DNA from: Girardia tigrina
Lineage: Eukaryota
Length of the DNA: 64,000 nt
Direction: 5' to 3'
Assembly (NCBI GenBank): GCA_001938485.1
Contig: MQRK01238430.1
Span: forward strand, 99,490-163,489
Positions within the stretch are counted from its first letter, which is position 1. Each line of letters starts with the position of its first letter. The notes under the pieces were generated by a model that worked only from the letters and a program-made list of their open reading frames with translations, was not told the origin of the DNA and made no database searches. Both the position numbers and the translations under genes were made by a program. Positions 22,291-62,040 of this stretch are shown here, in pieces.

Positions 22291-22364
22291 TTAGCAAAGC
22301 TGAAGAAAGACGAAAATTATTCTCTAAATTACCACTAGCAGCTCAAGAAGCATTTGCACTTAAG
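22291..22364 (+). CDS. Candidate isolated coding exon
   Basis: TTTTCGCAG acceptor and AAG|GTATCA donor; encodes SKAEERRKLFSKLPLAAQEAFALK. Confidence 0.4.
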
Positions 22365-29361: not shown

Positions 29362-32300
29362 TCACCAACAGTTTGCTGGGGGATCAATTTCGAAAATAAT
29401 ACGTGAACTACAAGCTGCTCCAGCTCTCAATAGCAATACTCGAGCTATGACAGAAATGTGACAGAAGAGTAAATTAAAATAATTAAAATAATTATTACCT
29501 TCTTCATTGTAATTGTGAAAGTCTCCTGGGGAACTCCACTGAATAATAAATATGTAGCGTGGAGATCTAGAGCCTCTGAAGACTACAACATCAGAAGACC
29601 CAGCAATTATTAACCCGTTAAACTTTAGAACCAGTGGAAATAAATCTTTCACATATCCAACAAAATTAGTACAATTTTTAATATCATACATGTCAAGTTG
29701 GAAAAGACAAAAATCTAAAATCACCAACTGTTAAACAGGTTTAATTCAACTACAACAAATAATTAAGTTTTAATTGACAAAAATAAATTTATTTTATAAA
29801 AATTCAGGGACTGTGACTTAAAATAATAAAAATAAAATTAAAATTTTAAATTAGTGAGAAAATTATTAAATAAAGTATATTATATTAAATTATGGTTTAT
29901 CACTAGAGCAGAGATCAGATGTTTCTTTTGTAGTTGTATTAGGTTCAAAAATACAGCCAAATGCACGCAGAACCATGGAAATACAATCCATGGATGGTAT
30001 TTTCTTACAGGAAAGCCGACAAGATCTCGGAGACCGAAGAAATCCGAACCAGGCTATCGGAAGGCTGCTAGATACTCTTTAGTTCGGGTGAACCCTCTTA
30101 AGAGTATACAGCCAAATGTTCAATACCATTGAAAGATATGTGAGGCCTACAAATTACTCATAAACTGCGCCAGACTTAACATGGAATTAAAAAGTCAAAG
30201 CTCAGTATTAACAACATCAATATGAGGTTTACAACATTTATTAATATTACAAGCGCATTCACTATTTGACATCTCTCTTGATCAATTTTTTCTGAGTTCA
30301 AATTAATTATTTTCAATAAATGAAAATCTGTTAATAAAAATTATTAAATTATAAAGAATCTAATTGGTTAAAATTAAATTACATTAAAAAAATAAATAAT
30401 ACATTCAAAAATTATTTTAAATCTTTTTACTTTAAAATTAAATTAAGTTATTTTTAATTAGTAAGAATCAAAGAAAATATCAATCATCCATCTGTGTATG
30501 AGAGGCACAATCCGAATCAACATTCTACATGCACAATATCAATACACAATTCAAAACATTCCTCACACTCAGGGTCTTCAAAAATTAATAATAGAGATTT
30601 CTTTGAAGACAAAAATCTTTCTAATAAATGCTTATTTCATATGGAAATAGTAGTTATTGAATTAAAGCCTTAATAGTACATAAAAATAAGTTTTAACTTT
30701 TAAAAATTGTTGGGTTGTAGTTGGAATCATTATTTTTATTTATACACATACTTAGCTGTAGGTAATCTATTAATATCTATTTTAATCTATTGCATAAAAA
30801 AATTCCCAAAAATATTGAAAATATTCAAATATATGAAAAACCTTATATATTCGCAATCAGCTAAATTTTATTTGTTTCCGATTATTTTTTTTTGAATTTT
30901 TGAGCATAGTTTATGTCGTTATTTTGGTTCATAATCAAAAAATAAGTACAATTTTAAAAATGTATTTTATATCAAAATAACTATATTTAAACAAATATAA
31001 TTAAATATTTAATATTAAACAATATTTCTTTAATATTAAAAGTTCAGGCATTTAAATTATGCCTACACACCTCCCCTCCTAGATCGATAAAAGCTGGCTT
31101 GGGTTTGTCGAGTTAAATGTTTTCTTCTCTGTCGCGTCTAGATTGTGATAACCTTGCCGTTTTCTGAGCGGCGTACTACATCGAAAGGTCCTTCGTATAC
31201 TGCTTGAGAAGGACTCCTGAGTTCTTTTTTATCCCCACTTATTTGCATTTCAGAAGATCCTTGGGACGGAAAAATTTTATATCTCAGTGACTCTTAAATT
31301 CATTGGATGAATCTAGAATATCTACAACGGATTGATTAAAATTATGCAGAATAACGTCTCCCGTCAGGTGTGTAGGTACCTAGTAAAATCTGGGACGGTG
31401 AAAGCCCGGAGCTGTTTTATTGTGTTTCGAAGTCCCAGTAAAACTCGGGATAGTATTTTCAGCCATTCTTTTTCTACATCGATTGCTGTAGATCTTAATG
31501 GTTCTTTCAATGTCCAATGGAATCTTTCTTTCTTTCCATTGTTCTGTGGGTGGTGTGGGGTTGTGTGAGGATGTTCGATTCCGTACTGATTACATAAATC
31601 TTTGATATCTGAAGCAATGAATTGCCTCGCATTATCGGTGATGACGTGTTCTGGTGTGCCGAAACGAGATATCCATTCTTTTTCAATTACTTTGATTACT
31701 TCTTTAGCTCCGATTTCTCGCATTAGGAAAGCTTCTACACCGCCGGTGTCGCGATCTATTGTGGTAAGAAGGAATTTATTCCTCTATTTTCTCCTTCAAT
31801 GGTCCGACCAGATCGATTTGGACCACTCTAAGTTTTCCCAGATTGGTGATGATACCATGTGGAGTTCTGGTGTGTTTATAAATTTTATTTGCTTGACAGT
31901 TTTAACAGTTGCGAACCCATTTTCGAATCTCGGTCTTCATATGGTCTTTGCGCATGAGCGAGACACGATTAAGTGAAGAGCAATCTGATAACGTGTTTTT
32001 GCTAATTGAAAACTTTTACCAATACCCCGCTTTTGGGTAACAGTTAAGAAACTGTTACCATTAGCAATTTTTAAGTCACGTAACGTTTAGTCAATAATTT
32101 GATTGTTGCATTTGCTTCTGAATGGCATAAGCTGTGAAGTCTAGAAAACTCAGAGTATCTGTGACATTCGGGTAGAAAAATCCTTGGAGTTTTTGTTGAC
32201 TTGTCTACGAGTAAGCCCTCTTTTGTTTTGTCTATTACCAGAGAAGAATTAAAATGTTTTGAAATGATGTGTCTTTCTTTTGATCTTTAATTAGTTCTTG

Positions 32301-35300
32301 AAGGGTAATATGAAACAATTCTTTGATCTCTTCGTCCTCATATTGTTTGGAAAGAAAATCTGCCACTACGTTTTCTGAACCTTTAATATAATTTATTTCC
32401 ATATCGAACTGAGATAAGAATTGAATCCATCTCCATTGGCAATTTGAAGGACTTTTCATTGTTTGCAAGTAAAGCAGTGGTTTGTTGTCTGTTTGTACTC
32501 TAAATCCGCTGTCCTCCAAGTAGTGTTTAAAGTTTTTAACCGCAAGAACTATTGATAATAACTCGCGTTCAAAGGTAGAGTACCTTTTTCCGTGGCTGTC
32601 AGCTTCCTGAAAAAAACTGGTTTTATATTACCTTCAGGATTTTCTTGGTTGAGACTATTTCCCACTGCTGTTCCTGACGCATAGGAGCATAAAACAAAGA
32701 GGGTATGGAAATTTGGTAGGCACATTGTTTTGATGTTTCTAAGCTTTGATTTGGCTTCTTGGAAGGCTCTTTCGTGTTTTTCTTCTCAGTTGAACTTGGT
32801 CCTTTGTTTACTACTCTGAGATACTTGTTCGTGAAGTGGGGCTAAGGTTTCTGATAATTTCAACATTAACCACTGGTAGAATATAACGGCTCCAATGAAT
32901 CTTCGTAGAGCTTTGGTGGATCTCGGTGGTTCCATTGCATCAATATTCAACATATTAACACCGAGTCCAGATACATTGAACCACAAGAAATTGAAGTCTG
33001 ATTGATTCCATTTGCACTTGTTAGATTTGATTTTTAGTTTAGAATTCTTCAATCTAGTCATAACTTCTGTACATGTTTGCGATGGTCGACATCGTTTTTA
33101 GAGAATACGATGATATCGTCAATATACGCCATTGCATAAGTTTCACATCCTCGTAGTATTGAATCGATTGTTCGCTGGAACGTTTATAATGCATTTTTCA
33201 ATCCGAAAGGTATAAAATTGTATTCGTAGAGGCCAAACGGAGTGATAACGGCTGTTTTGTGCTTGTCAGCTTTGTCGATTGGGATGTGGTGATATGCTTT
33301 CTCTATATCGATAGTAGAGAAAAAATTGCATTTGGATATCTGATCAAAAATATCGGTTATTTTGGGAAGAGGGTACCGACACGGCCTGGTTTTTGCATTT
33401 AAAGCCCTGTAATCGTCGCAAGAGCCGAATGTATCGTCCTTCTTCTTGACTATCACTAACGGAGAAGACGAATCGCTGTTGCTTTCTCGTATAATACCAT
33501 CTTTGAGTAGCGCTTCAAACTGTTTCCTGATATCATGCATGGTGGTGTTTGCCAGACGACGAGCTCTTTGTGTCGATGGAGGACCCGAAGTTTCAATTGT
33601 TAATGAAGGTAAGTTGATCAGTTGGTGTACTTCTGTCGGGTTTCGAAACAATTTCCGGTTTTTGCAGTCTATCAGGAGATTAAAATGGGCCAAGAAATCG
33701 GAGCCCAAAATTGGTCGGCGAACATCAGCGGCTGTGAATCTCCATTGAAAATCTTCTTCCAATCGCGAGATATGGAATTGTAAGACCTTTTCACCGAATA
33801 TTTTGATTTTGGTGTTATTGGCAGATATTAATTCACAGCTCCTCGATGTGGAGTCCGGTTGGAAGAGATTTCGGGGTGCAACGCTGATATCAGCACCTGA
33901 ATCAATTAAAAAATCAAATAACCTGGCACTTGACCTCACCGGAACGGAAAATATTGCGTTGAGCTTCGGTTTTGATGTGAATGGTCAATGATAATATCAA
34001 GGGGCCTCGGTGTTCGACCTCACTGGGTCCCTGATTCTTTTCCCGAAGGATTTCCGGATATCCAAGAGCATGGTTTCTGGCATTTCTTTGCTAATCGACC
34101 AAATCTTTGGTTGTATAAACACAGCTGTGGTTTATCGGTTTGAAGTTTACTGAGGCGATTTTTTATCCAGTTTAATTCGATTTTCATCATTTCAATAGTT
34201 TCATTTGAATGCTGGATTTTCGGTTCTATTGCCGAAATTCGTCTTTCGTCAAGCAAGAAATGAGCATCGGCTTTAGTGCTGAGTTCTTCTAGATTGAGCG
34301 TTTCGTAATTTATTAAATGATGTCGGATAGAAACTGGAAGAGCAGCTAGGAACTGTTGTTTGAGGAATTCGCATTTATCAAGATTAACGTTGGGCTGGAT
34401 TACTCGATAGCATTTCTTTAGTTCTTCCAGTAATCGGGTAGGTTTAAGTTGATAGTCCATTCCATGTTGTGTAGCGCGAAGCAAGGCCTGAGCTGCTGAC
34501 ATTGAGTATTCCTTGAATAAAGCCTGTTTTAACTTCTCGTAAGGTGACCGCATAATGGATCCATGGCTGTCGTCAGTGTTTCGAGGATGTCAGGAGGCAG
34601 GCAGGTCAGGTTATGAAAATATTTGCCAGTTCGAAAGCGTTTTCAACTTGGGTGATCCAGTGTACTATATTCTTAAAATATGGTGGAATTATGACTTGGA
34701 TGTGGCTGGTCTCAGCCACGCTTCTGACACCAGTGTCGTTATTTTGGTTCAAAATCAAAAAATAAGTACAATTTTAAAAATGTATTTTATATCAAAATAA
34801 CTATATTTAAACAAATATAATTAAATATTTAATATTAAACAATATTTGTTTAATATTAAAAGTTTAGGTATTTAAATTATGCCTACAGTTTAAAACAAAC
34901 ATAATGCATTTGGACAAGAAATTTCATATCAGCTTTCTTTGTGTATGTAACATAATAATAAAAACTGTTAATAATGGAGTGCTTAAATGAATTTATATGT
35001 AATGCAGTTGTTTAAATAAATCTCAAAAACCGCGTTATTTGAGTTTTCTCTTCAGTGATAATGAAAAATAGCTATATTGTAGAAAATTTTAAATTGAAGC
35101 TTGGTTCAAACTGAAAAAAATAAAAATAGCTTTACTAATATAATTTTCTGGTTTGCTTATGTTTGCTTAGGATAATTTTTAAACAGTCATTCATATAATT
35201 CGTGATAAGGAGCTAATATGAATAAAGCAAAATGTTCTCTGTTGACTCAATGCAACTATATTAAGCCCTGTTTTTGAATCTTTTACTACTAAACATCATT

Positions 35301-38300
35301 TTGATATTGTAATAATGAATTTCTATTAACTCAAAATTGATTGCCAAGCCACAGATTGCAAATGTCTGCTATAAATAATAACGTCTTATACAACTAAAAG
35401 CTAATGGCATGGTCATCATGATGAAAATAAACGAATTTAAAAATTGGTGATATTCATTTATGTTGCGATCTCCACTCAGAGTTATAGTTTCTTTTGGAAA
35501 AAAGATACTGTTGATTTGGAAAAAATGGGTTCCCTTTTAAAACCTTTTTCTTTTAAATCAAGACCAGAGTTGAATATTAGAACATTGGAAACACAGATGA
35601 GTTTCGATTAGTTTTCTTTTGTAGTTCATCATAAAAGCAGCGAAAGACATTATGATAACTACCGTTTATCCAAAGAAATACAGTTCTACAGTTATTTTGT
35701 GCGTGAAAGTAATTTTTACCGATGAGAACATTAAAAAAAATTAAAGATTAGAAAACGATGAAGAGTTATCTAATTTCAAAGAAATACCAATATAAGTTAT
35801 TGATTTGACGGCGTCATTTTGATGGACTTGATAGAAAATACATTTTCTTTTGTTTTTGATTTAGATTCCAATAAATTTAGATGTTTAATCTCCTAAAAAA
35901 AACCCCACCTCCAAAATATGTCATGACTTTTAATTCATCGCAAGTTCTATTTTTGGTCATATATGCCCGATATATAGTTGCTACAATATGGTATTTAGAA
36001 TATTACAAATTAATTATTACTTATTTAAAATGTTATTGCAAAAACATTACTTTACACATTTTTTTTGGAAGACGAGTAAACTCGTCATATCCCTTTTTAT
36101 AGTACAACTTGCGAGCCGAGTTTACTCGCTTTTTTGTGCGAAGCGGTAAGGTACGGTAAACTTGTAAACAATGTGTTCTAGACAGGTGTAGGTGGTGCAT
36201 TAATTATTGTTTCCGGTATCCAATCTATCTACCTGCTGATAAAATGAGCTTGAGAAGAAACAAATAATAATAAGGGTAAAAATAAACAACTCGAAAATGC
36301 TCAACTACATAGTGTTCATCAAAGCATTTTAAAACGATATTTTGGGATAATTAATGTTAAATATAACTGAAAAAAAACAAAAAAATGATCAAAAGTCTTA
36401 AAAAATATTAAAATTTATATCATACTTAATGAACTTTTGCAAGGAGTACAAAGGGGCAAAATATACATTTCAACTCCTCCTAACCAGAATTGTTCTCGGA
36501 TTTCAGTGTGAGCTTGACAACATTTAAGAGCATTTTCTTTGTTATCAAAACTAAGGATCCCCAATCCCCAATGAGCAGGAAATTGACCTTCAATACATCG
36601 TATGGAAGTCTAGGAAAGCAAAAGGATTTTGTTTTAGAATAATTCTTCAATAAATGTTTTATCTAAATAACTTTGTATATACCATTTTAACGAATGTGTA
36701 CATAAAACTTTGGATTCTAATTAACAAATCTCAAATCAGAATGTAAATAAAGTCCAGCTTATTTTCTTTCAGTTTATTTCTTGTGAAAACAACATATTTA
36801 ATCAAAGACATTTAACGACTTGGAAAAATAAACTATTTTCGGGTGTCAAAATTTATGCACTTTATTCAGGGGAATCTGGGGAGATTTTTTCACTACCCCT
36901 TACAAATCAATTTTTTTCAGAAAATAGATAAATCTTGTTTCCTGTAGCCTTTAAATTAGTGGCCTCTTAATTATTAATGTAACATTATTGAACTTTTACG
37001 ATTTATCAATACCTCAGTGGAAAAGGATATTCTTAAAAAAATAACTTTTACATAATAATTGAATAAGTAAAATGTAGTTGGTTATGGTATTAACAGAGCG
37101 TGCACAATAACATGGCTGCGGCACTATAGAACTGGATGTGTATCCCTGGGTGGTAGCCGTAACTTAATGGTACGTTAGATAAAATATCATTGTCGACATC
37201 AAACTGGATTTTCACGCATTTTTGGATCTCCTTAAATTCATCTGTCCTTCTCACCTTTATAGTCTTTCTCTTCTTTGATGGCAATTTCATTCGACTCGGA
37301 TCCTCCGATCGGGACCATTGTCGTCCAGTAATAATTTCTCCGTGACTTGTTCACACAATGACAATACTTTGACCAATATAACACCGAATCGCATATCGTT
37401 TCGTCGAGAAATCAAAAATATTTGATGAGAGCATTGTAAATTTAAAAAATTTGTATTTTTAAGAAATAAATTTTTTTTAGATCGACCCAATTAAAAGACT
37501 TTACAAATCAATAACATTGATTCTTTTTTTACGGAATTCAATTTTTTAATATTCATCATAATATTTTGCCTTATCCCATACACATATTTTCATATTTCGA
37601 AAATTCGCTAATTTACAACAATTTAAATATATTTTTTGTCTTTTTTTATTAATCTTTTATTTTTATAATCTCATTTTTTTAATATCCAAAATGTCATTTA
37701 TTTTATTCATAAAATGCATATTAACAGCCCATATCATATTTTGAAAATAAGCTACAAATTTTCAGTAAACAACAGAATGAAGTTAATGAACAGATGAGAT
37801 TTTTGGAAATACAATTCGGTCTTTGTATTTATTGTCATATTTGTCACCCCATACGGTCGATTGATAAATCTCCGATTGATTTAGATTATATTGATATTAG
37901 GACGAATTCCAAAAAAGCGGATTCAATATTGTTAATACATTTTCCATTTCAATATTTGTCTCCCCTTGGAGGATTGAACACATTTATTTAAAACTTACCA
38001 CAAATCGAAACATTTACTAAGCACACTTAAATAGACATAAGAGGCTAAAACGGAATATATCTGTATATTTTTTGAAGTATTCGAATTTGAAAATATCAAT
38101 CTATAATTATGATTGAGAAAGAGCAATCTAAGAATACATGCACAAAATACATATAACTAACAAATGACATTTGAAAATATTCTTTTTGTAGTTCCCCTCT
38201 ATCTGAAGGCTCTAAAAGAATAATTTCAGAAATAACTGAAATTTAATACTGGAATATCATACGGTTGTCATGTACGGGATGAACTTAAATGACTTTATGT

Positions 38301-41300: not shown

Positions 41301-43116
41301 TACACACCTATTATTTTTTATTCAGGGTATTAAGAACACCAATATGACTTAACATTTTTATTATTATAACAGGCTTGATTGTTATATATTTAAATTTTTA
41401 CTCAAAATTTATTGGATAAAAATTAAAATGATTATTATTTATTTAAGAAATATTAATTCAAATTATTTATTTAAAAATTGTAAATAAAATTAATAAACTT
41501 ATTTAAAATTTTACAATTATTTTAAATTAGAAATAAATTTAAATCTTACATATTTTCAGATAATAAAAATTAAAATATTAATCAGCCATCTGGGTAGGAG
41601 AGACACATTTCCAAATCAACATACAACATTCAAACAAAAAACATCAAACATTCAAAATATTCCTCACACAAGGCATTGACCAATTACAATAGGTCATATG
41701 TAGTCAAAATAAAATAATTTTTGGTAAAAATGTTTGAAAAAAATTTATTTTTTGATACAGGGGCTGACCATAATTGACGTTACGCGATTTTAACAGATTT
41801 CTAAACCCCCTTCCCTCTCGTCATATTTCGTTATAACAAGCCTGAACCCCCTTAAATATGATGTCACAAAGCTCTGACTCCCCTTTACATTTTCCTTTTG
41901 TTATCATATCTCATTTTTTTCACAAAACTAATATTAAACTTCTGTCTCATTATCAAATCAAAGGATTACTGCGACATATATCAACAATAGTTTGTAATAA
42001 TGAAGGCTGATCTTCCTCAATTCTGGGCTTACCAGGTTTGGCCCTGACGTTCATTGAGTTACAATTGACAGCAATTGAACACTGATTTTAGGGTAACGTG
42101 ATCTAATTAACAATGCTTACACAGATGTTGAAATTATCAATATTAATGCCTTATTTTCGGGAGACGAGTGAATTCGTCATACCTTTTTTTATAGTACAGT
42201 GCGGAAGCCGAGTTTACTCGTTTTCTTTCGCGAAGTGCTAAGGTGCGGCAAACTTGTAAATAATGGGCTCTAGACAGGTGTGACGGGGGGCGTTATATAA
42301 TGTCAGCGGTATCTAATCTATCTATCTGCCGATAAAATGAAGTTGAGACGCCTCGATTTGGCGGGAAAAGCTCCGACTACATAGGGTTAACATCACATTT
42401 ACATTTTTCCTATGCTCTGCAATAAAGCTCTTCCTCTCTTTTAGACCATGGTCTTTAATTCGTTTAGAAAGATGACAGGTAATCTCTCTAATGTAGGTGA
42501 CATCGCACTTATTACATTTATAGTCAAAAACAATATTAGAACAAAGAGTTAAAGGTGTAATAGATTTATTACTGGACCTATTTTGAATTTTATGAGATGA
42601 GAAATTATATAATTTTAGTTGCTTTTAACAATGCATTTTTAAAAGTTTTTAAATTCTTCAGATATTGTTGAATGTCAAAGTGACTACATATATTGTAAAT
42701 ATAATATAATTAAATAAATAAACCGATAATTCAAAATCGCAAATTGTCTTTCCAAATAAAAAATACTTTACCAGTTTTGCCATTCCGAAAAATTCCCCAT
42801 TCCCGTAAGCTTTAATGACGCCTAAATTTGTCATAATTGTGTTTCTAAACTTTTGAAAAGTGCTCAATGCATTATTATAGACAATCAAAACTAATGTTTG
42901 TTCGGTCGATCGACAAAGATTCTAAATGAGGAAGTTTCATTTGATTTTTCAACAGAAATTAGTAAATAATTTACACAGTTTTCTGTGTCGACCATCGGTT
43001 CCGATTTGGTCCATCCGCAAATGTTTGAGGCATTTACTGATATTTATTTGGAAACTAATTAGGGTTTTGTTCTTTATTTATGCATATGTATTACCTCCCG
43101 AGTCGAATAAAGCCAT
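29362..43116 (-). CDS. Tandem DUF1330-like (dimeric alpha-beta barrel) protein, 238 aa, 6 exons: 43116-43095, 43036-42975, 42921-42772, 36609-36426, 29714-29499, 29444-29362
   Basis: All five introns are GT-AG and phase-compatible (58, 53, 6162, 6711, 54 nt); 717 nt open frame. Two repeats match the DUF1330 pattern: IKAYGNGEFFG...CIEGQFP..WGLGILSFDNKENA and LVLKFNGLIIAGS...VFRG...YIFIIQWSS..DF..Y. Confidence 0.85.
30914..34887 (-). mobile_element. Complete compact Ty3/Gypsy provirus (3974 bp) in intron 4 of the DUF1330 gene
   Basis: 154-bp LTRs 30914-31067 and 34734-34887 (4 mismatches), 5-bp TSD GTTTA, PBS TGGTGTCAGAAG (tRNA-Leu type), PPT AGGAGGGGAGG; gag, FLIDSGAD protease, RT, RNaseH and integrase fragments. 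Confidence 0.97.
36066..36315. mobile_element. piggyBac-type terminal repeat, copy 1 (copy 2 at ~42157-42390)
   Basis: Shared GACGAGT.AA.TCGTC, GCCGAGTTTACTCG, CTAGACAGGTGT blocks; copy 2 ends ACATAGGG-TTAA. Confidence 0.6.
38617..39418 (-). pseudogene. Decayed duplicate of exons 1-3 of the DUF1330 gene
   Basis: Exon 1' 39418-39397 (MALFASE), exon 2' 38775-38714 with donor GT>GG, exon 3' 38672-38617 internally deleted (LGTIKAFENGEFCRKAKL); ~570-bp insertion in intron 1'. Confidence 0.85.
40370..40991 (+). mobile_element. LTR-like repeat with central gap
   Basis: Purine run AAAGGGAG then TGTGAAAAATCG ... CGTTTTTCA inverted ends; GC-richer interior. Confidence 0.4.
41759..41890 (+). mobile_element. 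PIF/Harbinger-type MITE end
   Basis: AGGGGCTGACCATAATTGACGTTACGC...CCCCC is typical of Harbinger MITE termini. Confidence 0.45.
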
Positions 43117-46732: not shown

Positions 46733-49700
46733 ATGTTTAAAAAAGTAAACAGATTTTATTTCAATAAATATTAATTTACAAAACGCTGTTTTCAGGTCCG
46801 TTTTATGAATAGTTTTCCGAACAAATATGTGATAATTATCGGAGTCGTTTCTTCGTGGATTTTATATTACAATCATTTGAATTTCTTAGGCATTTTGATA
46901 TTAACTGTCATCGTATTATTGTTGTATATCAATGAAAAATTGATTGGATCTAATAAACCGCAAGTGATTCCTAAAATAAATACGAAAACCGGTGAAAGTG
47001 CCGAATGGCTCAATACTCTCATTCAACGATGGTTTTTTTATGATAATAACTGATTCTATCATTGGAACATTTCTCGGATTTCAGGTGGATTTTTTCCATT
47101 TCTGGATCGGAGAATTACTTTCGGAAAAGAATCAATAAAATTCTTAAAACACACACGCCTGAGTTCTTCGGTATATATTTATGATACATATGTAAATCTT
47201 TATGTAACCATGTATTATTTATTTATAATAAACAAAATGTAATTATTATATCGACAGCTAAAACATCGACATAAAAAATAGAAATACAAAGAAATGTTTT
47301 AATGATAATAAAAATTTAAGATTAGAAAATTCTGCGACTATAATCGGCATCCTACGGCATTATGGATGGTACTTTTAAAACTGTTTCAAATGCATTTTAT
47401 CAGTTATACACTATTAATGGTTCTGTTGGCAATGAAGATTTGCGAGTGTTACCATTGGTATATTCGTTAATGACAAGCAAAAGAGAAAATAACTACAGGG
47501 TTTTCCAATAAGAAGTGTTATTTTGATATTCAAAGAAAAATCCATTTTTATAAGGTCGTATATTTATTACATTATAAAGAGAAAGGTGTGTCGTTAGTAA
47601 TGGTAAATAACATCAGCCAAATGACCACCACGACCACGCCTACAGGACCATATCCTTTTCATGAAATTTTCCATAACCAAATTGCAAAGTGGCTGCCCTA
47701 TGTCCTCGATAGCCTCACGAATTCAATCTTTGAGATCTTGAATCGACGCTGGGCTTTTGGCGTAGACCTTCTCTTTCACGTGGTGCAAAGAAAGAAGTCA
47801 CAAGGTGTCACATCACAAGACCTCGGTGGCCAATTGTGATCACCTCTTCGAGAGATAACACGATTCAGAAACGTTTCCCGTAAAAGATCAAAGGTTTCGT
47901 TGCTTTTGTGGCACGTAACGCCGTCTTGTTGAAAGTAAAAGTGGTCCAGATGTATATCATCCGATTCCGACCATAAAAAATTAATAATGATCTCTAGATA
48001 GTGTAATCCATTCACCGTAACTTTTGCTCCAGCCTCATTATCGAAAAAATAAGGTCCATTGACCCCGCCGCACCAAACAGTCACACATAGAGGATGAAGA
48101 GGCTTTTCAACAATAAATCTGTGGTTTTCAGAGCCACAGATGCGACAATTTTGCTTGTTGACGAAGCCACCGAGGTGGAAATGGGCCTCATCATTAAGGA
48201 TGATTTTTTGATGGAATTCCGTATCATTTTAATGCATTTTAAGGACCCAATCAGTAAAGACACGACGTTGTTGATGATCGACCGGCTGGAGTTTTTGCGT
48301 TAACTGAACTTTATAAGCCCTAAGACTGAAATCTTTATGCAAAATATGGTGTAAAGACGTTTGTGGTATGCCTAATTTCAAAGAACGACGATGAATGGAC
48401 AAACCTGGGTTTTCTTCAATACTTTGGGCTACAGCAGCAATAAACTCGGCTGTTCTTGAGCGATGTGCACGGATTTTATTCTTCAAATCATTAACTTGTC
48501 CCAACAGCTCGAATATTTTCACCAAATTCTGTATTCCGGTCCTACAAGGTGCTTCACGACAACCAAAAAATGTTCGAGTTTTAAGAACCATCTCTGCCCA
48601 AAATTCACCATTTTGTATTGAATTTTAATAATTTGAAGGCGTTATTTAAGCGTGTGTCGTTCCATTTTGATTAATGGCGTAGTTTATACTTCTCAAATGT
48701 CAAAAAATGAGATCTGCCGAAATAGTGGGCTATTCAAAATAACACCTCGTTTTGGATATATTGGATATATTTGGATATATATATTATTTAATTTAATTTA
48801 ATTTAAACACACCGCTTAGGTGGATTCAAATCAAATGTGAGACACGTTTCCAACCCGGTTGGAAAAGGCTTCATATTCCAGCGATTTGTTGCTTTCGCGT
48901 CTACCTTTGTCGCGCTGTCGGCAAAGAGTTACGCTCTCCAAGAGAGTCAACTGCTTGTGGTGTTAGGCAGTGCCATCTTTTATTAAGTCATCGTAAGAGA
49001 TGTAGATAACGGCATACCTTCCTCTTTATAATGTAATAAAAATCCGATCATTTATCTTATAAAAATGGATTTTTCTTTGAATATCAAAATAACGCCTCTT
49101 ATTGGAAAACCCTATATAAAACGGCTTTTTGAAGATTTAATAGATTTGGCATTAGAAAATGAAATTAATCTAAACTCATCTGTGATTATGACAGATCTAG
49201 AACTTCCGGTAACAAATGCAGTTAGAGTAGAATTTCCTAAAGCTCAAAATAAAATATTTTTTTTTCATTTCGGTCAATGCTTTTGGAAAAAAATTCAAAG
49301 TAACATCAATATTCACCGTGATGCTAAAGAGTTGGTGAGATGGTTTAAAAAAATATGTACATTTCACCATTTCTGTGGTCTGTATATGATGTAATTCACC
49401 AAGGTATTCTAATAAACACAAAATATCGTCGAGTCTTGGCACTGAAGATGGGAATGTATTATTAGGCTTGTCAATATTTTTCTGTCGATGTTGTGACTTG
49501 TCGATATTTTGGCCTGTGTCCAATTATTATATATCACTAAAAATGTATTTATATAATTGATTTAATATAGTGAAAAGCGAAGAAACATCTTATAAGTAAA
49601 CATTTATTACTTCACAATTTATGACAGATTTCATTCTTATCAGAACATCATCAGGTGCATCGTCCATTGACAAGAACAGATTTATAAAATTATCAAAAAA

Positions 49701-52700
49701 ATGAATCCAAAAATGAGTCTGTATCAAACACAGTAAATATTAGTATCTCTAACTAAATATCTTAAGCGTTTTAAGTATATTTTTAAAATATATTTATAAA
49801 ATATTTGACAAATATTCTGTGTTCGATACAGACTCCTTTTTGATTTCATTGTGGTATTTTATAAATGTTTTATCAATGGACTATCCACCTGATGATGTTA
49901 TGATAAGAATGAAACATGTCGTGAATTGTGAAATAATAAATGGTTACTTAAAATATATATTTATATGTATATTAGACCAATAACTCCATCTTCCTTTTCC
50001 AGTACCCACAGGGAAATCCCGCTATAAGTGACCGTTTCTTGTGGATTGGTTCGGGAAAGAGGGGAAAATTAATTAACAAAACACTATAACTAATTAGATT
50101 TGTTAAAATAAATACACATATGTATTGATAATTTAATGCCCTTTCAATCAATAAAAAGATTCTCAAGATCTCAGTTTTAATTGGCTATCCTTTATTTATA
50201 CAACATTCAAATTAACAAATGGTTCTAAAATATTTTTCGCCTAACATTCTTAAAAAGATATTTTATTGTTCTAAATCCACTTGTAAGCGGCGTTTTAAAG
50301 ATTGGATATTGCTTTCATCAAAATCGAGTATTCTGTTATACCATATGATATATCATTATAGATTTGTTTATTACCGACACAACCAAAATATTTCTGCTCG
50401 TTACAGATGAAACAAAAAATATCAATGGTTTTATCAATGACCTATTTTTTACGAATAAGTACAGCAAGACTCCCTTTGCCAAGAAAAATAAGATTTTTAT
50501 GTTTTAAATTCGACTTTAATTCTTGAAATTTAGAAGCATAGATAAATCACCTTTCATTTCTTGACTCAGTTTCTTCTTTATATGATAGGTTTCAAGCCTT
50601 TTAAAATTCGATCTACCGTACTTGTACTTATATTTATTTGTAATTTTTCTAAATTTGACTTTTAAATCTGATAATCTAAGTAAGCAATTCTCGTCAACCT
50701 GAGAAATTACTATTTCTTTAAGTTCCATCTTTAATTTAAATTGGAAATTTCGTTTTTTCTTACTTCCAACAATTCTCCAGTAGCCTAAACTGTTCAACAA
50801 TACGATATACTGAGTTGTAACTTTAGTCATACATCACAGAAATAGACTTCAACAGCATTATAATAATCTATTTATTGCGTGTTTTTCATTCTCGTCAGAA
50901 ATCTTCTTCTGTTTTTTTCTGAGATCGATGATTTGAAATGATTGATTTTGAAATTATATATAAATATATATAAAAATCAAGAACGCTATTAAAATAAAAT
51001 TTTATTGTCGCAATATATTTCGGTGGATTTTCCACCATCTTCAGGCTGCATTAACAACAATTTCACTGTTTTATATACAGCAAATTGATGATTATGCAAA
51101 CATCTTGTGTAATAACTAATTAAATATTTTCAACAAATTGGAAGAGCGACTTGTTTGAACATTAACCCTACAAATACCATGTGGGAAATAGTTACATATT
51201 ATACCATGCATGGACAAATATGTCCATAAAAGTAATCAAATAAAAAGAAGCAAAAAAATTTGTTTTAAATAACAAGTCCTAATTAATTTTGAAGTATATT
51301 CAATCTGATTTGTCCACAATTATCACAAAAAATCTCGATTTTCGAATGTTTCTTACAAACAAAGAAATCACAGCTACAACATTTTGAATTAATTCTGCTG
51401 GCTTTATGTTTTGTTTCATAATCGACTGATGTGTCATAACATATCTTGCATCTTACGCGTAATACTTGTTTACTACGAGAACTCGATTCTGATATTTATA
51501 TCCATTGTGTCATTAATGATGATGATGATGATGGTAATGTGGAGGATGAAGATGAATGAACGATACAATCAATAGAAAACACAATATCTCGGTGTAGATT
51601 TGCCTTTTGTCGTCTACTTGCGTTTCGCAAAACCAACGAATGAGCTAACTCTCTTAGAAACAATTTTCTCTTATTCGGATTTTTGACTTGCCAGTCAGGA
51701 AAACTTTCGATAAATGTGTATGCATTTACACCTACTATATCCAATAATGTATAGAAAAGTGAAACAGGCCATCTAAATGTTCCTCTTTTAGTACTGTAAT
51801 GGCGGGTAATTTTATCGATTGTGTCAACACCCCCTTTAGTCATATTATAGAACGAGTTGATTTCCGGTTTACGTTTATCGCCATCAAACGTTCCAATAGA
51901 CTGATGATGAGTTGATATGAATAATACTGATTTTCGAGGCTTTGCGTTGTATGAAAGGAGTGTTTTTGGTGCTGAAGTAGAGATCGCTTTTGAAAATAAG
52001 AATACAGATGAGTACAGCTCTGTTCCGCTAGTATTTTTTATAATATTAGGAAGATGCTTTCTGTTAGATTGAATAGTTCCGACCATTGTTAGTTTAAAAT
52101 TGTGCCATAGAATATCTGCTAAATCAATAGATGAATAATAACGGTCCATCGTTATATTACGTGAAGATCCTTTGATCACCTTAACCAGTCTAATAACTAT
52201 GTCTATAGGTTTATTGGATTGTAAATCGGATTTGCCAGCATATGGCTCCATTGCTAAAACATAACGATGCTTAGCGTCTGTTATCATTCGAATAAGTATA
52301 CCGTATTTACCGGGCTTATCCTTCATAAAAATCTTGAATGGGCACCTTCCACGAAATAGTGAGAGCATCTCATCTATAGTCGTACATTCGTAAGGCTTGA
52401 AAAGTCTTGAAAATGAAGATGCAATTGATTCAAACAGATTTCTTATGGGAGCAAATTTATCAGTCTTTCTTCTTTCTTGTCTGGTACTCTTTTCATCGAA
52501 TCGCAAATGCTTTATTATTTGAATAAACCTATTTCTTGACATCGCGCCCCTGTAAAATGGTCTACCATTTAGTTGTGACCATAAATCTGTAATCGATGGA
52601 GTATTATCATTATTGCTTCCCATCATGTATAATAGTCCCATAAAGGTGAGCAGATCGATTTTATCAATCTTATCATTTTCTTCTATTATATGTTCATTCG

Positions 52701-55700
52701 TATTTTTGATGGTTATATCAAGGACATCCGTTGACATGAATTTACGGAAAGCATCTTCTGCATTTATAGCCTTACCGTCAGGTGTTATGCCCATATGATC
52801 TTTTATTACATCTTGAATATATCTTTTTTGATTTCTAAACTGCTTCTTGAATTAAACCTTACCAGTTTTTGACACTATTTGTTTGTTTGTCTCTTCTAAT
52901 TCTTCGTCTTCTCCTACTTCATCTTCATCGTTCAATTGATACTCTTTCTCATTGTCTTCAACTTCACTTGTCTCATCTTCTTCTCCTGATAAAATTAAAT
53001 CATTTTCTCCCGCAATATCAATTCTAAAATAAATAAAATAAATCAGTGAAATAAAATAAAATCAATATAAAAAGATAATATATAATATATAAATTATATT
53101 TAATATATAAATCAATATCAATGAAATAAAATAAAATCAATAAAATAAAACACAATAAATCAGTTAAAAAACTAATTAAAACCCCTTGCAAGATAAATAT
53201 GGACAAGAATCGGATCAGCTAAATGCACTTTCAAGTCCGGGACCGCAATAAAATTACACTGCTTAAAGCATTTTCAAAGATTTTCATTTAGTTTTAAAAT
53301 TTTAAGATTTTCATAAGTATGAACATTTTTGTCCATGCACAGTATTTGTAGGGTTAATGGACGGATTAAGTGATTTAATCAATAATGCTTCACAAGTAAC
53401 TCTTTCCCAAAAATTTTTTAAATTACTGGATTCATGAATTTAAAATTAACGGATTCAGGAGCATGGACGATTGGGTAATGGGAGTAATATTGCTGGACAT
53501 ATGAAGGGTTGTAAATCGGAGGTGAAAACAACTAATTTTAAAATATTGTACAGTAATTTTAAAAATTATTGGGAAAGTTACTTGTGAAATATTATTGATT
53601 AAATCACTTAATCCGTCCATTAATGTCCAAACAAGTCTCTCTTCCAATTTGTTGAAAATATTTAATTAGTTATTACGCAAGATGTTTGCATTTTCATCAA
53701 TCTTTATATATATAAGTAAGCGAAATTTTTGTTAATTCAGCCTGAAGATGGTGGAAAATCCACCGAAATATATTGCGACAATAAAATTTGATTTTAATGG
53801 CGTTCTTGATTTTAATGAAAATTTACCATTATTTTTTAAATTTCTTATTAATAAATATATACAAAGTTCTTTTTCAAATATAATCGTAACTTTTTTACAA
53901 ATAAATCTTTAGAATTTATAAAAATCGATAGAATAACATTTGGAAACACTACTCCAAATGCATCTGCTATAAAATTGATGGATTTGTCCGCACCGGATAA
54001 AAGGCCAGTGTATTTGACCGAAAATTCTCTCAGCAAATTGATCAGTTTTATCAAAGGAACAAGATATTATTCGATTGTTTTGGAATTCGATGTGAACTTT
54101 CGTCTGACCGGTACCGAGATCTCTGTGCTTTGTAAACATAAAAAGTTAGTTTATTGATTTAAGTGTACTTTTATGTGATTTATTGAATGAATGAGTTTTT
54201 CATTTTTTTACACGAAGAACTTTATCTTTTTTATTTATATTATTTTTTACGTGATCTTTGTGAATAGTTTAAGAAATTCGTATAAATTTTCAAATTTCAA
54301 AAATATTTAAAAATATATCATAAAATATATCAATTAAAAAATAAGCATTTTAAAATTAGAATAAAATAAGTTTGTTAGAACGCAAGATTAATATATACAA
54401 TACTTTATTCAAATCAAATTCAAAATTGTGTGCAACACTCAATTACTTAAATTATTATTTAAATTAATATTTAGTTAAATTAGTTTTGAGAGATTTCAGA
54501 AAATTCTAGAACCGATTGTTAATATTGATTTTTGTAAATTAAGTATTAAGGTAAATTATAATAATGAAAATTCCTCAATAACTTCATTATCCAACACGAA
54601 AATATGGAAGGTAACATATATGACATTAAAGTGAAGTTTGGAAAATGACTACAGACGAAGACGGACTAAAATAAGCATTGAAATAGATAGACACTCAGAA
54701 CAAAAAATCTGTAGATGCATATTTATCGGAAATTACTTGGATATGTGGTGCACAAACTTGCTACGATATAGGATACATATGAATGTAGGATACATAAACA
54801 CAAAACCAAGATGACAACCAATAAAATTTGAGCGAGACATATAAAAGGAATATTGAAAGATGTTATTGTTGCTAAAATTGATAACAAGTATCGTGGTTCC
54901 AAACATTAAAACAACATATTTTGTATAACATATTAACAAGTGTCATGCTGGTAGTAAAAAAGTTCATAATTATCTCAAAAATGATTTTGATAAGGATAAT
55001 ATGCGAGTGATAGTAAAAGAAATAGTAGTACTATTATCGTACAATGTGTAGATTGGGAAATGTGAATGGATACCACTACATATTGGCCATAATCGACCAA
55101 TTAGAAGATGTATTAGTAAGAACACAGTGATAAATCAAGATAAAAAATCGCACTAAACGTCCTACTAGATTGATGGATATGGAAATTTAGATCACCAAAA
55201 GAAGTTCACATGGACAGAGGGAAAAATTTTAAGCATCGCTGTTGAAAGATTCATTCAAAAAATTCGAAGTAGAAATAGTTTCCTCTAGTCCTAATCATCA
55301 CAATACAAATTAAATCATGGAAAGGTAGTTTAGAACAATTGAAAATGTGTCCTGTAATCGCATTTACAAAAGAACTTTAATTATATTATTTATAAATAAT
55401 AAGTGATACAGAAATAATAGTGTTGCATTTATATAAATATAATATTTACACTGATAATAGAAAATAAGAAAAATACTTCAAGTAATAACAAAATAAATTG
55501 AAAACAATTTTTGCATAGATTAGTTGTTCAAATATTTAAAGTTTCATCATTTTATTTTTTGTTTATTTGTTCAGTTAATAAATAACTCTCGTCTTTTTAT
55601 ATTTAATAAATTCTAGACTAAAGCATCAAATTTCGATAAATGAATAATAATTTATTATTTTTTATCATTTTCTGGTAATTCGAGAAGACTATTTTCAATA

Positions 55701-58700
55701 AAACAGACTATAAATAAAAATATAAAATAAGAATTTTATTTAAAATTTAGAATTAGCATTGTGATTGACATCGTTATATAATATTGTTAATTTAATTTTA
55801 TATTTTGATCAAAAACGTATCTAATCAAAATTCTTCAAATACAAATGCAGTGACAATAGAATTTTTCTGAGATTGATGAATAATATCTATCAGTCATATG
55901 TGTCAATTATTCATCTTCCAAAAAAGTTACATCAAAAATTAATAAAATATCTTTTAAATGTGCAGCTAATGATTTATTAATATTTCTAGAGGCTCAATTA
56001 TTATACGAGAAAATTATAAAATTAAATTTGAATAATTATTGTAATTAGTGTAATAATAGAAGCATAATTTAATCAGAAATATAATTCAACCTAATATTTT
56101 CAATTAATATAATGAATTTGTAAAGTTTATTTTCAAAGATTAAATTTATTTATTTTAATGAAACGTCCAAAAAATTTTTTTAATAGTGAATCTGTTTACT
56201 GAAGAATGGTATTACAGAGTTTTTAAAATGTTTTCTTAGAAAACAAATTCTAAATAACAATTATCAGTATAAATCCGAAAAAAAGATTTTGTCTTATAAA
56301 TTGTATTAGTTATTATAGTTTTGGTGTGATTTTAGATATTTGCCTCGAATAGTCAACTGGATTAATCTGTTAACCCGTTATACCCTCCTTGGACGTGAGC
56401 TATTATGACATAGCATCTGTATAGATGCTGTTTATAATCATTACAAGAAATTATGTGCTTTCTATGATCGTGTATCTATTTATACCCAACAACAAAAACG
56501 TTTTCTATTTATCAAAGCACTGTGAACATAAATACTTTAATATAGTTGAGGATAGTTGTATTTGTACATTGATTTTAGAATCATTAAATGTTATCATAAA
56601 TGCTTCACACGCATCGCCCTTGCTATAATTATTAGGTTGGTCGAAAAATAATGGCGGTTTTGGGACAAACTTCAAAGACGTGCAAATTCACAGAAACAAA
56701 AGTTTATTAATCAAAGTATGAACCGTTGGCATCAATACATTTTTGCCANNNNNNNNNNNNNNNNNNNNNNNNNNNNNNNNNNNNNNNNNNNNNNNNNNNN
56801 NNNNNNNNNNNNNNNNNNNNNNNNNNNNNNNNNNNNNNNNNNNNNNNNNNNNNNNNNNNNNNNNNNNNNNNNNNNNNNNNNNNNNNNNNNNNNNNNNNNN
56901 NNNNNNNNNNNNNNNNNNNNNNNNNNNNNNNNNNNNNNNNNNNNNNNNNNNNNNNNNNNNNNNNNNNNNNNNNNNNNNNNNNNNNNNNNNNNNNNNNNNN
57001 NNNNNNNNNNNNNNNNNNNNNNNNNNNNNNNNNNNNNNNNNNNNNNNNNNNNNNNNNNNNNNNNNNNNNNNNNNNNNNNNNNNNNNNNNNNNNNNNNNNN
57101 NNNNNNNNNNNNNNNNNNNNNNNNNNNNNNNNNNNNNNNNNNNNNNNNNNNNNNNNNNNCCTGGATTCAAGAAACTATAGTGGATGATTCCAGCATCACA
57201 CCACCAAACTGTCACCATAACCTTACGGGGTGTTAGTTTCGGTTTTGAAAAGTGTTTCGGTACTTCATCTTTGTCCAATCACTGTGCAGATCGACGTCGG
57301 TTATCATACAGGATCCATTTCTCATCACAGGTAACAATACGATCAAGAAATGGATCGTTCTTATTGCGAAGATGATTGGCAGAACAAATTTCATAGCGTC
57401 GGTTCTTTTGATTTTCATTCAAATCATGTGGAACCCATTTATCAAGTTTCTTGATTTTTCCAAGTTGTTTTAAATGATCCAGGACTGTTGAATGACTAAT
57501 ACCAAACCCATCTGCAAGTTCTCTGATTGTTGTTGTTCACAGCAACTGGACGACCATGACATTCTTCATCTTCAAGGTTTTCATCTCCATCAGAAAATTT
57601 TCGGAACCATCGTTGCACTGTTCGCTCAGAAACTGTTCCCTTGCCAAACGCTTTATTGATATTGATAGCCGTTTCTGCTGCTTTACGACCCAGTTTAAAT
57701 CCGTACAAGAAAATTGCTCGAATTTTATTTTTTTTCATTATTAATTTAGCACCGTAAATATTCTAAAAAATAACAGCAATATGTTAATAATGGCTATAGG
57801 AATATACAGCTAGGCATAAGATTTCAAATAATATCTAACACTAATGCATTTAAACTTATATACATATCAAAGTAGATAAACAAAGTATAAAGCTCAAAAA
57901 CCGCCATTATTTTTCGACCATCCTAATATTAAACCGTCAACACAGAATTTTAAAGTTACCTAAATCTTATATTATTATACGTTTCTTTAACTTAGTTATA
58001 TAGGGATTACATGAACATCACTTTGGTATAAAAATCCTTAATATACCATTATTGGTTTTTGGGAACATTTATAACAAGTTTTCTACAATTTACAAAAAGG
58101 ATTACACATTAAAAATTAAAAATCTATGAAATAAAAATTGTTTTAAATAAGTTTTACTCTTTACTGCTTGATTTTTTTATTTTAATAAAAAAAATATATA
58201 ATATAGGAAATGAGAATGCGTTTAAGTTTTGATAAGCTAATTAACGATCATTAAAGTATTTAAGTAATCAAATGCATTTTAAAGGCGCCTAAATTAACAA
58301 TCTATTGTTTATATTTTTAATATTAATTACCGCTAATTAATAGAACTTTAAATCCATAAATAAACAACGTAAATTATACATTTTCTTTATCTTTTATGTT
58401 TGTCCTAACGATTTTTATATTTATCGCAGGTATCCAGAAGAAAATAAAATTGTTTTGAAAGATTTCTTCATCAATGGAATCCTTAACTTGAAGGTTACCC
58501 TTGATGCTGGAATTCCTTTTCCACATATTAGTGAACTCGCTCTCTATTTCAGTGAAAAACATATGTGAGAAATTATATTTTAATGTAATTTTTACTTCGT
58601 CAATTACACATTTTTTTATTTAAAATGTTGTCTATTTTTGATAATTAAATTACACTTTTAACATTTAACTTTAGATTAATTAGTTACTTAATGTTAATTA

Positions 58701-59400: not shown

Positions 59401-60445
59401 TTTTACCACGTTTTTATTAGCTTGCTTTCTTGTCTGTTTGTCTGGAACAAATTTTGCGATTGATATTTCGACCACTTTCAGTCATCCAATTGAGCTGAAT
59501 TTTTTATACAGGCTTACTTCCGATGACAATACAATTTGATAAAAAAATTTTGAAAAAAAAATATTTTTTTCTAATTTTCTTTGCAAAAAACCACTTACGG
59601 TTATCTACAAATTTATACACTGTATTAAATAGCAATCTTTTCGTTTATTTTCATGAATGAAGTTAAAACTCTTTCAAATTACCAAATAATTTTATTTTGA
59701 AGATTGAAATATTTTCAAAAAATTTTTTTCAATTAATTTTTTTACATTTTATACACACACACATGTATATATTGAAATAATCAATGGTATTTTACCACGT
59801 TTTTCTTAGCTTGGTTTCTTGTCTGTTTGTCTGTCTGGAACAAATCTTGCGATTGATTTTTCAACCACTTTCAGTCATCCAATTGAGCTGAATTTTTTTA
59901 TACAGGCTTGCTTCCGATGACAATACAATATTTNNNNNNNNNNNNNNNNNNNNNNNNNNNNNNNNNNNNNNNNNNNNNNNNNNNNNNNNNNNNNNNNNNN
60001 NNNNNNNNNNNNNNNNNNNNNNNNNNNNNNNNNNNNNNNNNNNNNNNNNNNNNNNNNNNNNNNNNNNNNNNNNNNNNNNNNNNNNNNNNNNNNNNNNNNN
60101 NNNNNNNNNNNNNNNNNNNNNNNNNNNNNNNNNNNNNNNNNNNNNNNNNNNNNNNNNNNNNNNNNNNNNNNNNNNNNNNNNNNNNNNNNNNNNNNNNNNN
60201 NNNNNNNNNNNNNNNNNNNNNNNNNNNNNNNNNNNNNNNNNNNNNNNNNNNNNNNNNNNNAAAAAGCAGTAAAGAGGAAATAGCAGTTACTAATAGCAGT
60301 AATTCAGAAATCCGCCCCACGTTTTTGGTTAGGTATAAAATTTCACACATGTCTAGAAAAAAATTATTTTCCTCTTTTTTTAGTGCATTGGTAATGCTTG
60401 AAAAACGTGGTTGTTTTTATAAAAAAAATTTTTTATTAATAATAT
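59401..60445. mobile_element. Two head-to-tail DINE-1/HINE-like repeats (copies B and C)
   Basis: TTTTACCACGTTTTT...TGTCTG starts at ~59401 and ~59790; 3' part matches 14657-14832. Confidence 0.65.
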
Positions 60446-62040
60446 TTTTAAAAATAAAATAATAGATTTTTTTTAAAAATTACCATATATATTTGTCTAA
60501 AATCGGTCATGCTCAATTGTCGGTCACGTTCGAAGTTTATTATGATAAAAATGCGAAATCGCAGAGGAACCGGAGCGAATCCATACTAGGATGTAGTTAA
60601 TCTGTTTAGCCGCATCGAGACGGATTTTGTTCGTGCCGCGCCGCCACCGAAAGGCGCTGGGAGCCGACTTAATTTACCGACTGTTAAATCAACACAGAAT
60701 TCGAAACTATAAATAATAAATTATAATAATTACGATTTAAAAATTAAATAAGAAACTTTCAAAGACGAAAATTCAGCTCAACCGTCATATATGACTGGTT
60801 TTTTTATAGTCATTAATAATTACCATAAACTTTTCATTGCGTGTTTCAGTTTATAACAATTTATCTTTGTTAAGGTGACATACATGCGAGATTATTGGAA
60901 TATTGTGAATAATCTTTAGTAAATTTCTGAATATAATTTATCTATCCCAGAAAACCTTTTAAAATATTTTAAAACGTAGCAAAATTTTCTAAAAAACTGG
61001 CACACATCGGTCCATCAGCTCCGATTCCGATATTAACAACAATTATGTTATAGAAATTTAGGGGATTTTTAGTAATTCTATTTTCAGCCGTTTTTATAAA
61101 TAAATGTTTAAGTACAATTTTATTCAGAATAATGGTCATTTAAATATTGAGAATTAAAATATCACATTAGAAATTATAAATATCTTACAGTCCCATTTTT
61201 AAACTTAATTTCTCTGCGTTACTGGTGACTATTTTGTTGTCAGTGTTACACAGTATTGTTGGGGTTCCGTAAAATATAAATTAAATTAAAAAAAAATAAT
61301 AAAAAAATTAAAAACAATAATCTAGTTAAAATTAATAATTTTTTGATTATTATAATAATTATTTTTATGAAATTTATAAATATTTGTAAATATTTTGAGA
61401 TTTGTTTTAGTTTTTCAATTTTCAAGGCTAGGAAAAACTAGTATATAAACAATTATTATTTTAGTCTTATTCTCACAAAATATTTCGGACAAAATATATT
61501 TTGCTGTTTCCATTAAAGTTTTTATGTAATGAATTGCGGTAATCTTTATTTTTATTTTTAAATATAATTACAAATTGAGTATCCTGTAAGGGAGAAAGTT
61601 TGTTATTTTTAAAATTACAGATATTGCTCGTTCAAAAAATCGATATTGAGTTGTATTGATTGAGTGTGCTTCAAATATTTGATTTGGCGATAAAATTCCA
61701 AATTCAGTTTGTGCTCAAGTGTCATTTGCAAATAAAGTTTATTAAAAAGAATTGTGTTCATTCCTTATATATTATTGTTGGAAGAAACCTTTTGGTCGAT
61801 TTGGAGTCAGATTATTAGTTTATTATAAACAAAGAAATAAAAGTGATTTAATTGTATACCCAACAGTATGTAGCTTCTATTATGAATTGTATATGGACCT
61901 TCAGACTTGTTCTAATGTTTGTCTTTAATGTCTTTCTTTATCCCAAGCATTCTCCTATCTGAAATTTTAGTACCGTTTTTTCGCAGTAATTGGTTTATTT
62001 CTCTTTAATTCCCTTTCTGATATCTATCACTGAAACAATA

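Follow-up and report, generated by a model that had tools for sequence, protein, structure and literature searches.

The window analyzed here is a 64-kb stretch of genomic DNA of the eukaryote Girardia tigrina (contig MQRK01238430.1, positions 99,490 to 163,489), 1,677 bases of which are N and thus unsearchable; all coordinates below are those of the window. The element under study, hereinafter element A, is a compact palindrome with a hammerhead ribozyme motif on each of its two inverted arms. Approximately 1 kb away, at 50960-53861, lies a second hammerhead palindrome, element B, which derives from a Penelope-like element (PLE) belonging to another family and is used here for comparison. Considered together, the features described below suggest that element A is most likely a decayed and heavily 5′-truncated insertion of an endonuclease-bearing (EN+) PLE with inverted pseudo-LTR (long terminal repeat) ends.

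The inverted arms of element A comprise an outer pair (49587-49673 and 49870-49956; 87 nt, 86%) and an inner pair (49700-49738 and 49812-49850; 39 nt, 85%). In the alignment of the left arm (49590-49738, minus strand; profile match reaching 49749) with the right arm (49812-49953, plus strand; profile match from 49803), both of which appear to be pseudo-LTR fragments with the 3′ end outward, 122 of the 142 columns are identical. The fold of 49580-49965 has a free energy of -150.4 kcal/mol compared to a shuffle mean of -60.1 (z = -18.5), a value that none of the 100 shuffles equals. Hence the long inverted arms that a first-pass annotation had placed at 49593-49950 are real, but the palindrome is not continuous: at the inversion junction the arms are kept apart by 73 nt of AT-rich spacer (49739-49811, including a 28-nt near-palindrome, 49777-49804, that matches at 24 of 28 positions), and the element extends beyond the annotated span, to a one-sided tail and a flanking duplication (see below). 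Each hammerhead points outward and is located 64 nt inside its arm end, and the two cores lie 235 nt apart on opposite strands. The arms start 77-95 nt 5′ of the hammerhead core, a distance close to the length of the non-coding stretch of element B, and the hammerhead is their best-conserved portion.

The plus-strand motif (49886-49923) has the form of the minimal type I hammerheads known from metazoan PLEs. It consists of CAC (49886-49888), the core box CUGAUGA (49889-49895, with C3 at 49889), an extra U (49896), helix II (49897-49910) and GAA, followed by the self-complementary ACAUGU (49914-49919), C17 (49920) and GUG (49921-49923), with the predicted cut after C49920, that is, between 49920 and 49921. 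All three core-proximal pairs of helix I form, with further pairs past a mismatch, and the helix III palindrome holds at 6 of 6 positions (duplex energy, -4.6 kcal/mol). Every component initially reported for this strand, namely the CUGAUGA/GAAA core, the CAC/GUG stem I, the palindromic ACAUGU and the GUC site, is present, although the 5-bp helix II includes one mismatch. In the minus-strand counterpart (49620-49657; C3 at 49654, C17 at 49623), both core boxes are preserved and the 5 bp of helix II pair perfectly; however, only one of the three core-proximal helix I pairs forms, and the helix III palindrome passes at four positions and fails at two, yielding no stable duplex. Thus, of the two hammerheads originally proposed, one per arm, the plus-strand copy is intact whereas the minus-strand copy is degenerate in helices I and III. 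The type I order, the core boxes CUGANGA and GAAA, and the UH site are found in both arms of elements A and B, and all four motifs contain the extra U after the first core box. The pair that closes helix II is a G-U wobble on both arms of element A and G-C in element B.

A hammerhead descriptor that includes a 3-bp helix I matches the window once, on the plus strand of element A (3 of 300 shuffled windows match), and the same descriptor without helix I detects four loci, the two arms of A and the two arms of B, compared with 0.22 matches per shuffled window (61 of the 300 contain at least one); these chance figures are somewhat generous because the descriptor was written after the motif had been seen. 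The confinement of all four matches to A and B counts in favor of the PLE interpretation. When the entire window was searched against Rfam, no hammerhead was detected and only a U4 small nuclear RNA (snRNA) exceeded the gathering threshold; at E-values up to 10, the region 49500-54000 produced seven weak matches, none of them from hammerhead families. The Rfam result neither supports nor tests the motif of element A. Elsewhere in the window, two hammerhead-like core boxes stand alone with 5 nt between them (22300-22315, plus strand); they fail the helix II test and are probably a chance occurrence.

The idea that the palindrome presents a ribozyme whichever strand is transcribed fares poorly: the minus-strand motif is damaged and, in computed folds, the full-length transcript hides the core within the hairpin. 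Specifically, in the whole-element transcript, the 10 plus-strand core bases that were checked are predicted to be unpaired with a probability of at most 0.008, and the predicted probability of helix II is 0.0 on both strands. The core would be buried in this RNA because the antisense arm, transcribed first, pairs with the sense arm. The equilibrium model predicts that helix II is rare in single-arm transcripts too, with probabilities of 0.0002 and about 0.03, and the isolated minimum-energy folds of element A do not display the active hammerhead form; the rarity of helix II in these models agrees with reports that PLE hammerheads cleave weakly or depend on protein (PMC11167929 and PMC4209133). 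The ribozyme is probably inert at its present locus, where read-through transcription would yield a long hairpin RNA that might, at most, give rise to small RNAs.

The ends of element A are asymmetric. The right arm directly adjoins one copy of a candidate target-site duplication (49955-49966), whereas the other copy (49543-49554) stops 35 nt outside the left arm, the intervening sequence being the one-sided tail (49555-49589, minus strand); in both elements, the tail length was taken as the offset of the duplication from the arm. The two 12-bp copies match at 11 of 12 positions, with 9 exact. The flanks of element A are 82% and 69% AT, and the chance of such a repeat depends on composition: when flank pairs were drawn at random and tested in the same geometry, an exact 9-bp match turned up in 0.8% of 40,000, in 4.4% of 40,000 pairs with at least 80% AT and in 11% of 2,515 pairs with at least 88% AT, and an 11-bp match in 0.09%, 0.64%, and 2.2%, respectively, the geometry window having been fixed after the repeats had been spotted. 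Among the tested ends, there are no direct repeats of 4-12 nt that abut both arm ends, so that element A, without a repeat of at least 4 nt in this position, lacks the duplication abutting both terminal inverted repeats that is expected of a miniature inverted-repeat transposable element (MITE).

Element B is a more complex palindrome that has been split by a transposon. Its inverted repeats pair 50961-51165 with 53620-53825, and a further inverted repeat occupies 53354-53623; the arms are identical in 178 of 195 columns in the outer part and in 76 of 84 columns in the inner part. The outer left arm (50971-51165, minus strand) contains the last codons of a GIY-YIG endonuclease domain and a hammerhead (C3 at 51044, N17 at 51012). 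It is followed by a piggyBac transposon (51166-53353, minus strand), which is bounded by TTAA at 51162-51165 and 53354-53357, has terminal repeats identical at 12 of 12 positions and retains an open transposase frame of 451 amino acids on the minus strand (51499-52851; PF13843, E = 4.9e-66). The piggyBac element is younger than element B, its insertion host. The inner left arm (53356-53439, minus strand) is a remnant of the GIY-YIG C-terminus, with 22 of 24 residues identical to P0001, the protein combining reverse transcriptase and GIY-YIG that was used as the PLE reference (14,978 relatives at E-values up to 0.001). The right arm (53450-53669, plus strand) encodes a frameshifted C-terminal half of the GIY-YIG domain up to the stop codon, with 93% identity to P0001 over 53450-53584 and 29 of 40 residues in the later frame, and is followed, 72 nt past the stop codon, by a minimal hammerhead (53740-53776, plus strand; C3 at 53742, N17 at 53774). 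Both arms of element B accordingly translate outward into the end of the endonuclease and, under a matrix derived from 104 of 150 P0001 relatives, rank first and second among 123,790 positions. An exact 11-bp duplication adjoins the left arm (50960-50970), and its right copy (53851-53861) begins 35 nt outside the right arm, beyond a tail at 53816-53850 (tail and right copy together, 53816-53861, plus strand). Helix II begins with an ATG, from which a frame of 34 codons extends to the end of the tail. Element B is thus a PLE that has been truncated on its 5′ side, where an inverted copy adjoins it.

The assignment of element A to the PLEs is favored by its 35-nt tail and its 9-12 bp duplication, which match the described PLE insertions. 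Each of the two duplications alone is modest evidence, and it is the identical 35-nt offset in two unrelated elements that persuades. Since the arrangement of element B arises from an ordinary coding PLE end, inversion at insertion explains element A without a new family, and A and B would represent two PLE families with one architecture. Thus, the PLE connection and the minimal, dimer-type hammerhead proposed at the outset are supported by the tail and duplication and by the sister palindrome with its GIY-YIG sequence; the proposal of a MITE-like element, in contrast, is undermined by the lack of a duplication of 4 nt or more at both arm ends and of a second copy in the window, as well as by one broken motif and the hidden core.

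A plausible course of events can be outlined. The GIY-YIG endonuclease would nick AT-rich DNA with a stagger of 9-12 bp, as the duplication suggests; cleavage of AT-rich DNA on both strands has been reported (PMC11167929). Reverse transcription would then be primed on both target strands and begin at two neighboring RNA positions separated by about 35 nt, leaving one arm longer by the tail. The tail is visible in the sequence, and the two-start mechanism is borrowed from the in vitro analysis of an anole PLE, in which the tail was tied to two neighboring reverse-transcription start sites (PMC11167929). Synthesis of both cDNAs would have halted early, at a point 77-95 nt upstream of the core of the hammerhead; the products probably were joined 5′ end to 5′ end over the short AT-rich spacer, which would account for the observed geometry with both 3′ ends outward. 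Under this scenario, a hammerhead is found on both arms because the pseudo-LTR that contains it is doubled. The arms have since decayed, apparently neutrally, to 14% divergence, or a drift of about 7% per arm if they were identical at the start, and one hammerhead has been broken. The literature suggests that, in the parent element, the hammerhead would act on tandem precursor RNA, either in dimeric form or assisted by a protein.

Several observations weigh against this interpretation. The main weakness is that element A has no protein-level link to PLEs. A Pfam scan of 120 segments (117 of the 165 frames of at least 65 amino acids and three pieces of element B) gave no match for the 76-amino-acid open frame of element A, nor did a protein database search with this frame; within element A, neither tblastn with 161 PLE proteins nor a profile of the C-terminus found a match, an N-terminal profile built from long matches found nothing in A or B, and the best scores of the P-x-[LIM]-N matrix (104 of 150 proteins) inside element A are at chance level. 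A faint “TDSF” likeness of element A to PLE C-termini likewise scored at chance level and was discarded. The initial statement that element A contains no coding remnant is therefore upheld by all these searches; given a truncation at the arm length of A, which is close to that of the non-coding end of B, little or no coding sequence would be expected. Furthermore, the duplication of element A taken alone is modest evidence, and the G-U closure of helix II departs from the conserved G-C of the hammerheads described in PMC4209133. Element B is an analogue of A and not its parent: a global alignment of the two detects no homology and no alignable DNA in common. Finally, A has neither a parent nor a further copy within the window. 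In particular, blastn, nhmmer (next best E-value, 1.1) and a pattern search with three mismatches detected no second copy in the 64 kb, the two pattern matches being the element's own arms. No copy or relative of element A was detected in prokaryotic genome contigs either, and a search of such contigs for PLE relatives based on P0001 gave 56 pattern matches, none of which was confirmed; an alignment of 27 PLE relatives contained no stretch conserved enough to serve as a search query. A scan for sigma-70 promoters, a model ill-suited to a eukaryote, stayed at chance level (5 observed, 5.1 expected).

The alternative that survives best, although we consider it unlikely, is that element A is a copy of a non-autonomous palindromic family that is moved as a unit in trans by a PLE protein and is transcribed from the AT-rich center or from either flank. 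The compact organization without coding sequence is compatible with this possibility, as is the finding that, in a rotifer, pseudo-LTRs (pLTRs) suffice in cis for mobilization in trans (PMC3846280), and tandem retrozymes have been argued to be non-autonomous PLE derivatives (bioRxiv 10.64898/2026.07.22.740005). Moreover, the 14% divergence of the arms could be older than the insertion, and the near-palindromic AT stretch in the spacer resembles those at the 5′ ends of pLTRs. However, there is no second copy of A within the window, the same architecture next door comes from the ordinary coding end of element B, one hammerhead is broken and a full-length RNA hides both, and the tail is present on one arm only, as expected after a single integration. 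In a more elaborate version, similarly improbable, A would be the type copy of a palindromic retroelement family that has many copies, encodes no protein, consists of two PLE ends and is moved as a unit by a PLE enzyme in either orientation; its hammerheads would be off in the read-through hairpin and on only in transcripts begun at the AT-rich center, the two divergent RNAs of which could each provide the helix III partner of the other.

There is far less to recommend the derivation of element A from a DNA transposon, a Mutator-type or Foldback-type MITE that carries or has captured a hammerhead-like stretch, and we regard it as very unlikely. Mutator-type elements typically have long imperfect arms around a short spacer, together with an AT-rich duplication of 9 bp, traits that the arms, spacer and duplication of A do resemble; in addition, a remnant of a Mutator-like element (MULE) transposase is encoded nearby, at 49032-49391 (PF10551, E = 1.4e-05). 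The duplication, however, is offset by 35 nt on one side, without a repeat of at least 4 nt at both arm ends, no blastn match connects A with the MULE region at an E-value of 0.1, and the hammerhead is the most conserved part of the arms, with details that fit the PLE motifs. The region of the MULE remnant as a whole (49032-49530) lies just upstream of A and contains short inverted repeats (49419-49435 and 49495-49511) that are unlike the arms of A in sequence. The remaining possibility, that element A is a functional RNA kept by the host (a regulated ribozyme or a hairpin RNA) or an artefact of assembly, is the least credible of all: the hairpin is very stable and the plus-strand motif nearly intact, but the differences between the arms (indels and, in 20 of the 142 columns, substitutions that include all six types) exclude a collapsed or mirrored read and look like neutral decay, the surroundings consist of broken transposons, and no Rfam family reaches the threshold at element A.

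The window is AT-rich, with 20-39% G+C per 2 kb except for the last 2 kb, and is crowded with broken transposons, in which Pfam recognizes domains of MULE, piggyBac, mariner and LTR-retrotransposon type. Two additional PLE remnants were identified. The first, at 42051-42624 (minus strand), is a decayed GIY-YIG sequence with 35 of 64 residues identical to P0001; a repeat of 200 bp (42151-42348), a second copy of which lies at 36059-36255 (80% identity), interrupts it, and no hammerhead core was found downstream. The second, at 56535-56630 (minus strand), is a PLE C-terminus (50% over 32 amino acids to P0001, E = 0.002) that ranks third under the matrix and is cut by a mariner-like element; again, no hammerhead core was found downstream. 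A U4 spliceosomal RNA gene (31944-32086, plus strand; 85.3 bits) is located within a broken LTR retrotransposon, between the RNase H and integrase remnants, and an exon encoding a Discs-large L27 domain (13344-13487, minus strand; PF09058, E = 3.5e-12), with a GT splice donor after it, is the only clear piece of a host protein gene seen in the window. A database search with this exon gave no match, and the only structures it matched were those of Discs-large. Both the two GIY-YIG remnants and the animal-type eukaryotic setting that is indicated by the U4 snRNA and the L27 exon count for the PLE interpretation of A.

Other palindromes in the window yielded no hammerhead match. A repeat family at 14221-14844 and 59401-60450, in which a short microsatellite of tetranucleotide units accompanies a palindrome of 285 bp (14530-14814, 84%) without a hammerhead motif, resembles the Helentron-associated non-autonomous elements. 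Three shorter palindromes (28398-28532, 5132-5200, and 34807-34853), with arm identities of 71-85%, do not match the hammerhead descriptor.

Comparison with known systems places element A within a recognized pattern. MITEs and Foldback or Mutator derivatives are short and non-coding and possess long terminal inverted repeats that form a stable hairpin. Element A shares all these features but differs from such derivatives in its one-sided tail, its ribozyme motif, and the lack of a duplication abutting both ends. Animal non-LTR retrozymes are similar to A in being short and non-coding, with a type I hammerhead and a link to PLE pseudo-LTRs; unlike the head-to-head A, however, they are head-to-tail tandems in which same-strand ribozymes release monomers (bioRxiv 10.64898/2026.07.22.740005). 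With one motif per strand, no single RNA of A could be cut twice to set a unit free, and neither a direct repeat of its unit nor a same-strand pair of hammerheads was found in it. If the palindrome nevertheless spread as a unit, it would be an inverted counterpart to the tandem retrozymes; full-text literature searches, with subscription journals and repeat databases outside their scope, yielded no description of a multi-copy palindromic family consisting of pLTRs only.

The closest parallels are found among the PLEs themselves. Minimal hammerhead ribozymes (min-HHRs) reside in PLE terminal repeats across metazoans, and most of the scattered ones have been ascribed to truncated PLEs (PMC4209133). 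Element A shares with them the type I topology, the extra U after the first core box, which is described as a feature of PLE min-HHRs, the short helix I, and the palindromic helix III that suits dimers; it departs from them in its G-U-closed helix II of 5 bp as opposed to 7-8 bp, the closing G10.1-C11.1 pair being called highly conserved but not invariant, and in the degeneration of one copy (PMC4209133). The spacing of the hammerhead cores in A and in B (506 nt once the length of the piggyBac element is subtracted) is comparable to that of the “dual min-HHRs” of Schistosoma mansoni, located on opposite strands about 100-700 bp apart (Cervera and De la Pena 2014, PMC4209133). Similarly, the frame of element B that opens at the start of helix II has a counterpart in the anole element, the open reading frame (ORF) of which starts at stem II (PMC11167929).

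The overall architecture is that of EN+ Penelope/Poseidon insertions. Rotifer Penelope copies have adjacent inverted pLTRs, one of which carries a 31-bp tail, and duplications of 8-10 bp (Arkhipova et al. 2013, PMC3846280), and a tail of 30-40 bp at one end is described as a general trait (Craig et al. 2021, PMC8557442). As in such insertions, element A has an inverted, 5′-truncated copy at its 5′ end with both 3′ ends outward, a tail at one end in the 30-40 bp range, a duplication in the 8-12 bp range, and a short palindrome near the pLTR 5′ end (PMC3846280, PMC8557442); it differs in that its arms are only about 150 nt each, with no ORF between them, element B being intermediate in that it has kept the C-terminus of the endonuclease. 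The inverted arrangement is thus already known, and the sequence families of A and B are not matched to named elements. From this perspective, element A is ordinary, one more fossil of a known pattern of PLE insertion. Together, however, A and B make a clean example pair, two unrelated PLE families within 4.3 kb that display the same inverted ends, the same 35-nt tail and an AT-rich duplication. This shared signature fits the two start sites used in vitro by the anole element and offers a simple genomic means of distinguishing palindromes of this sort from MITEs, with which they are readily confused in annotation.

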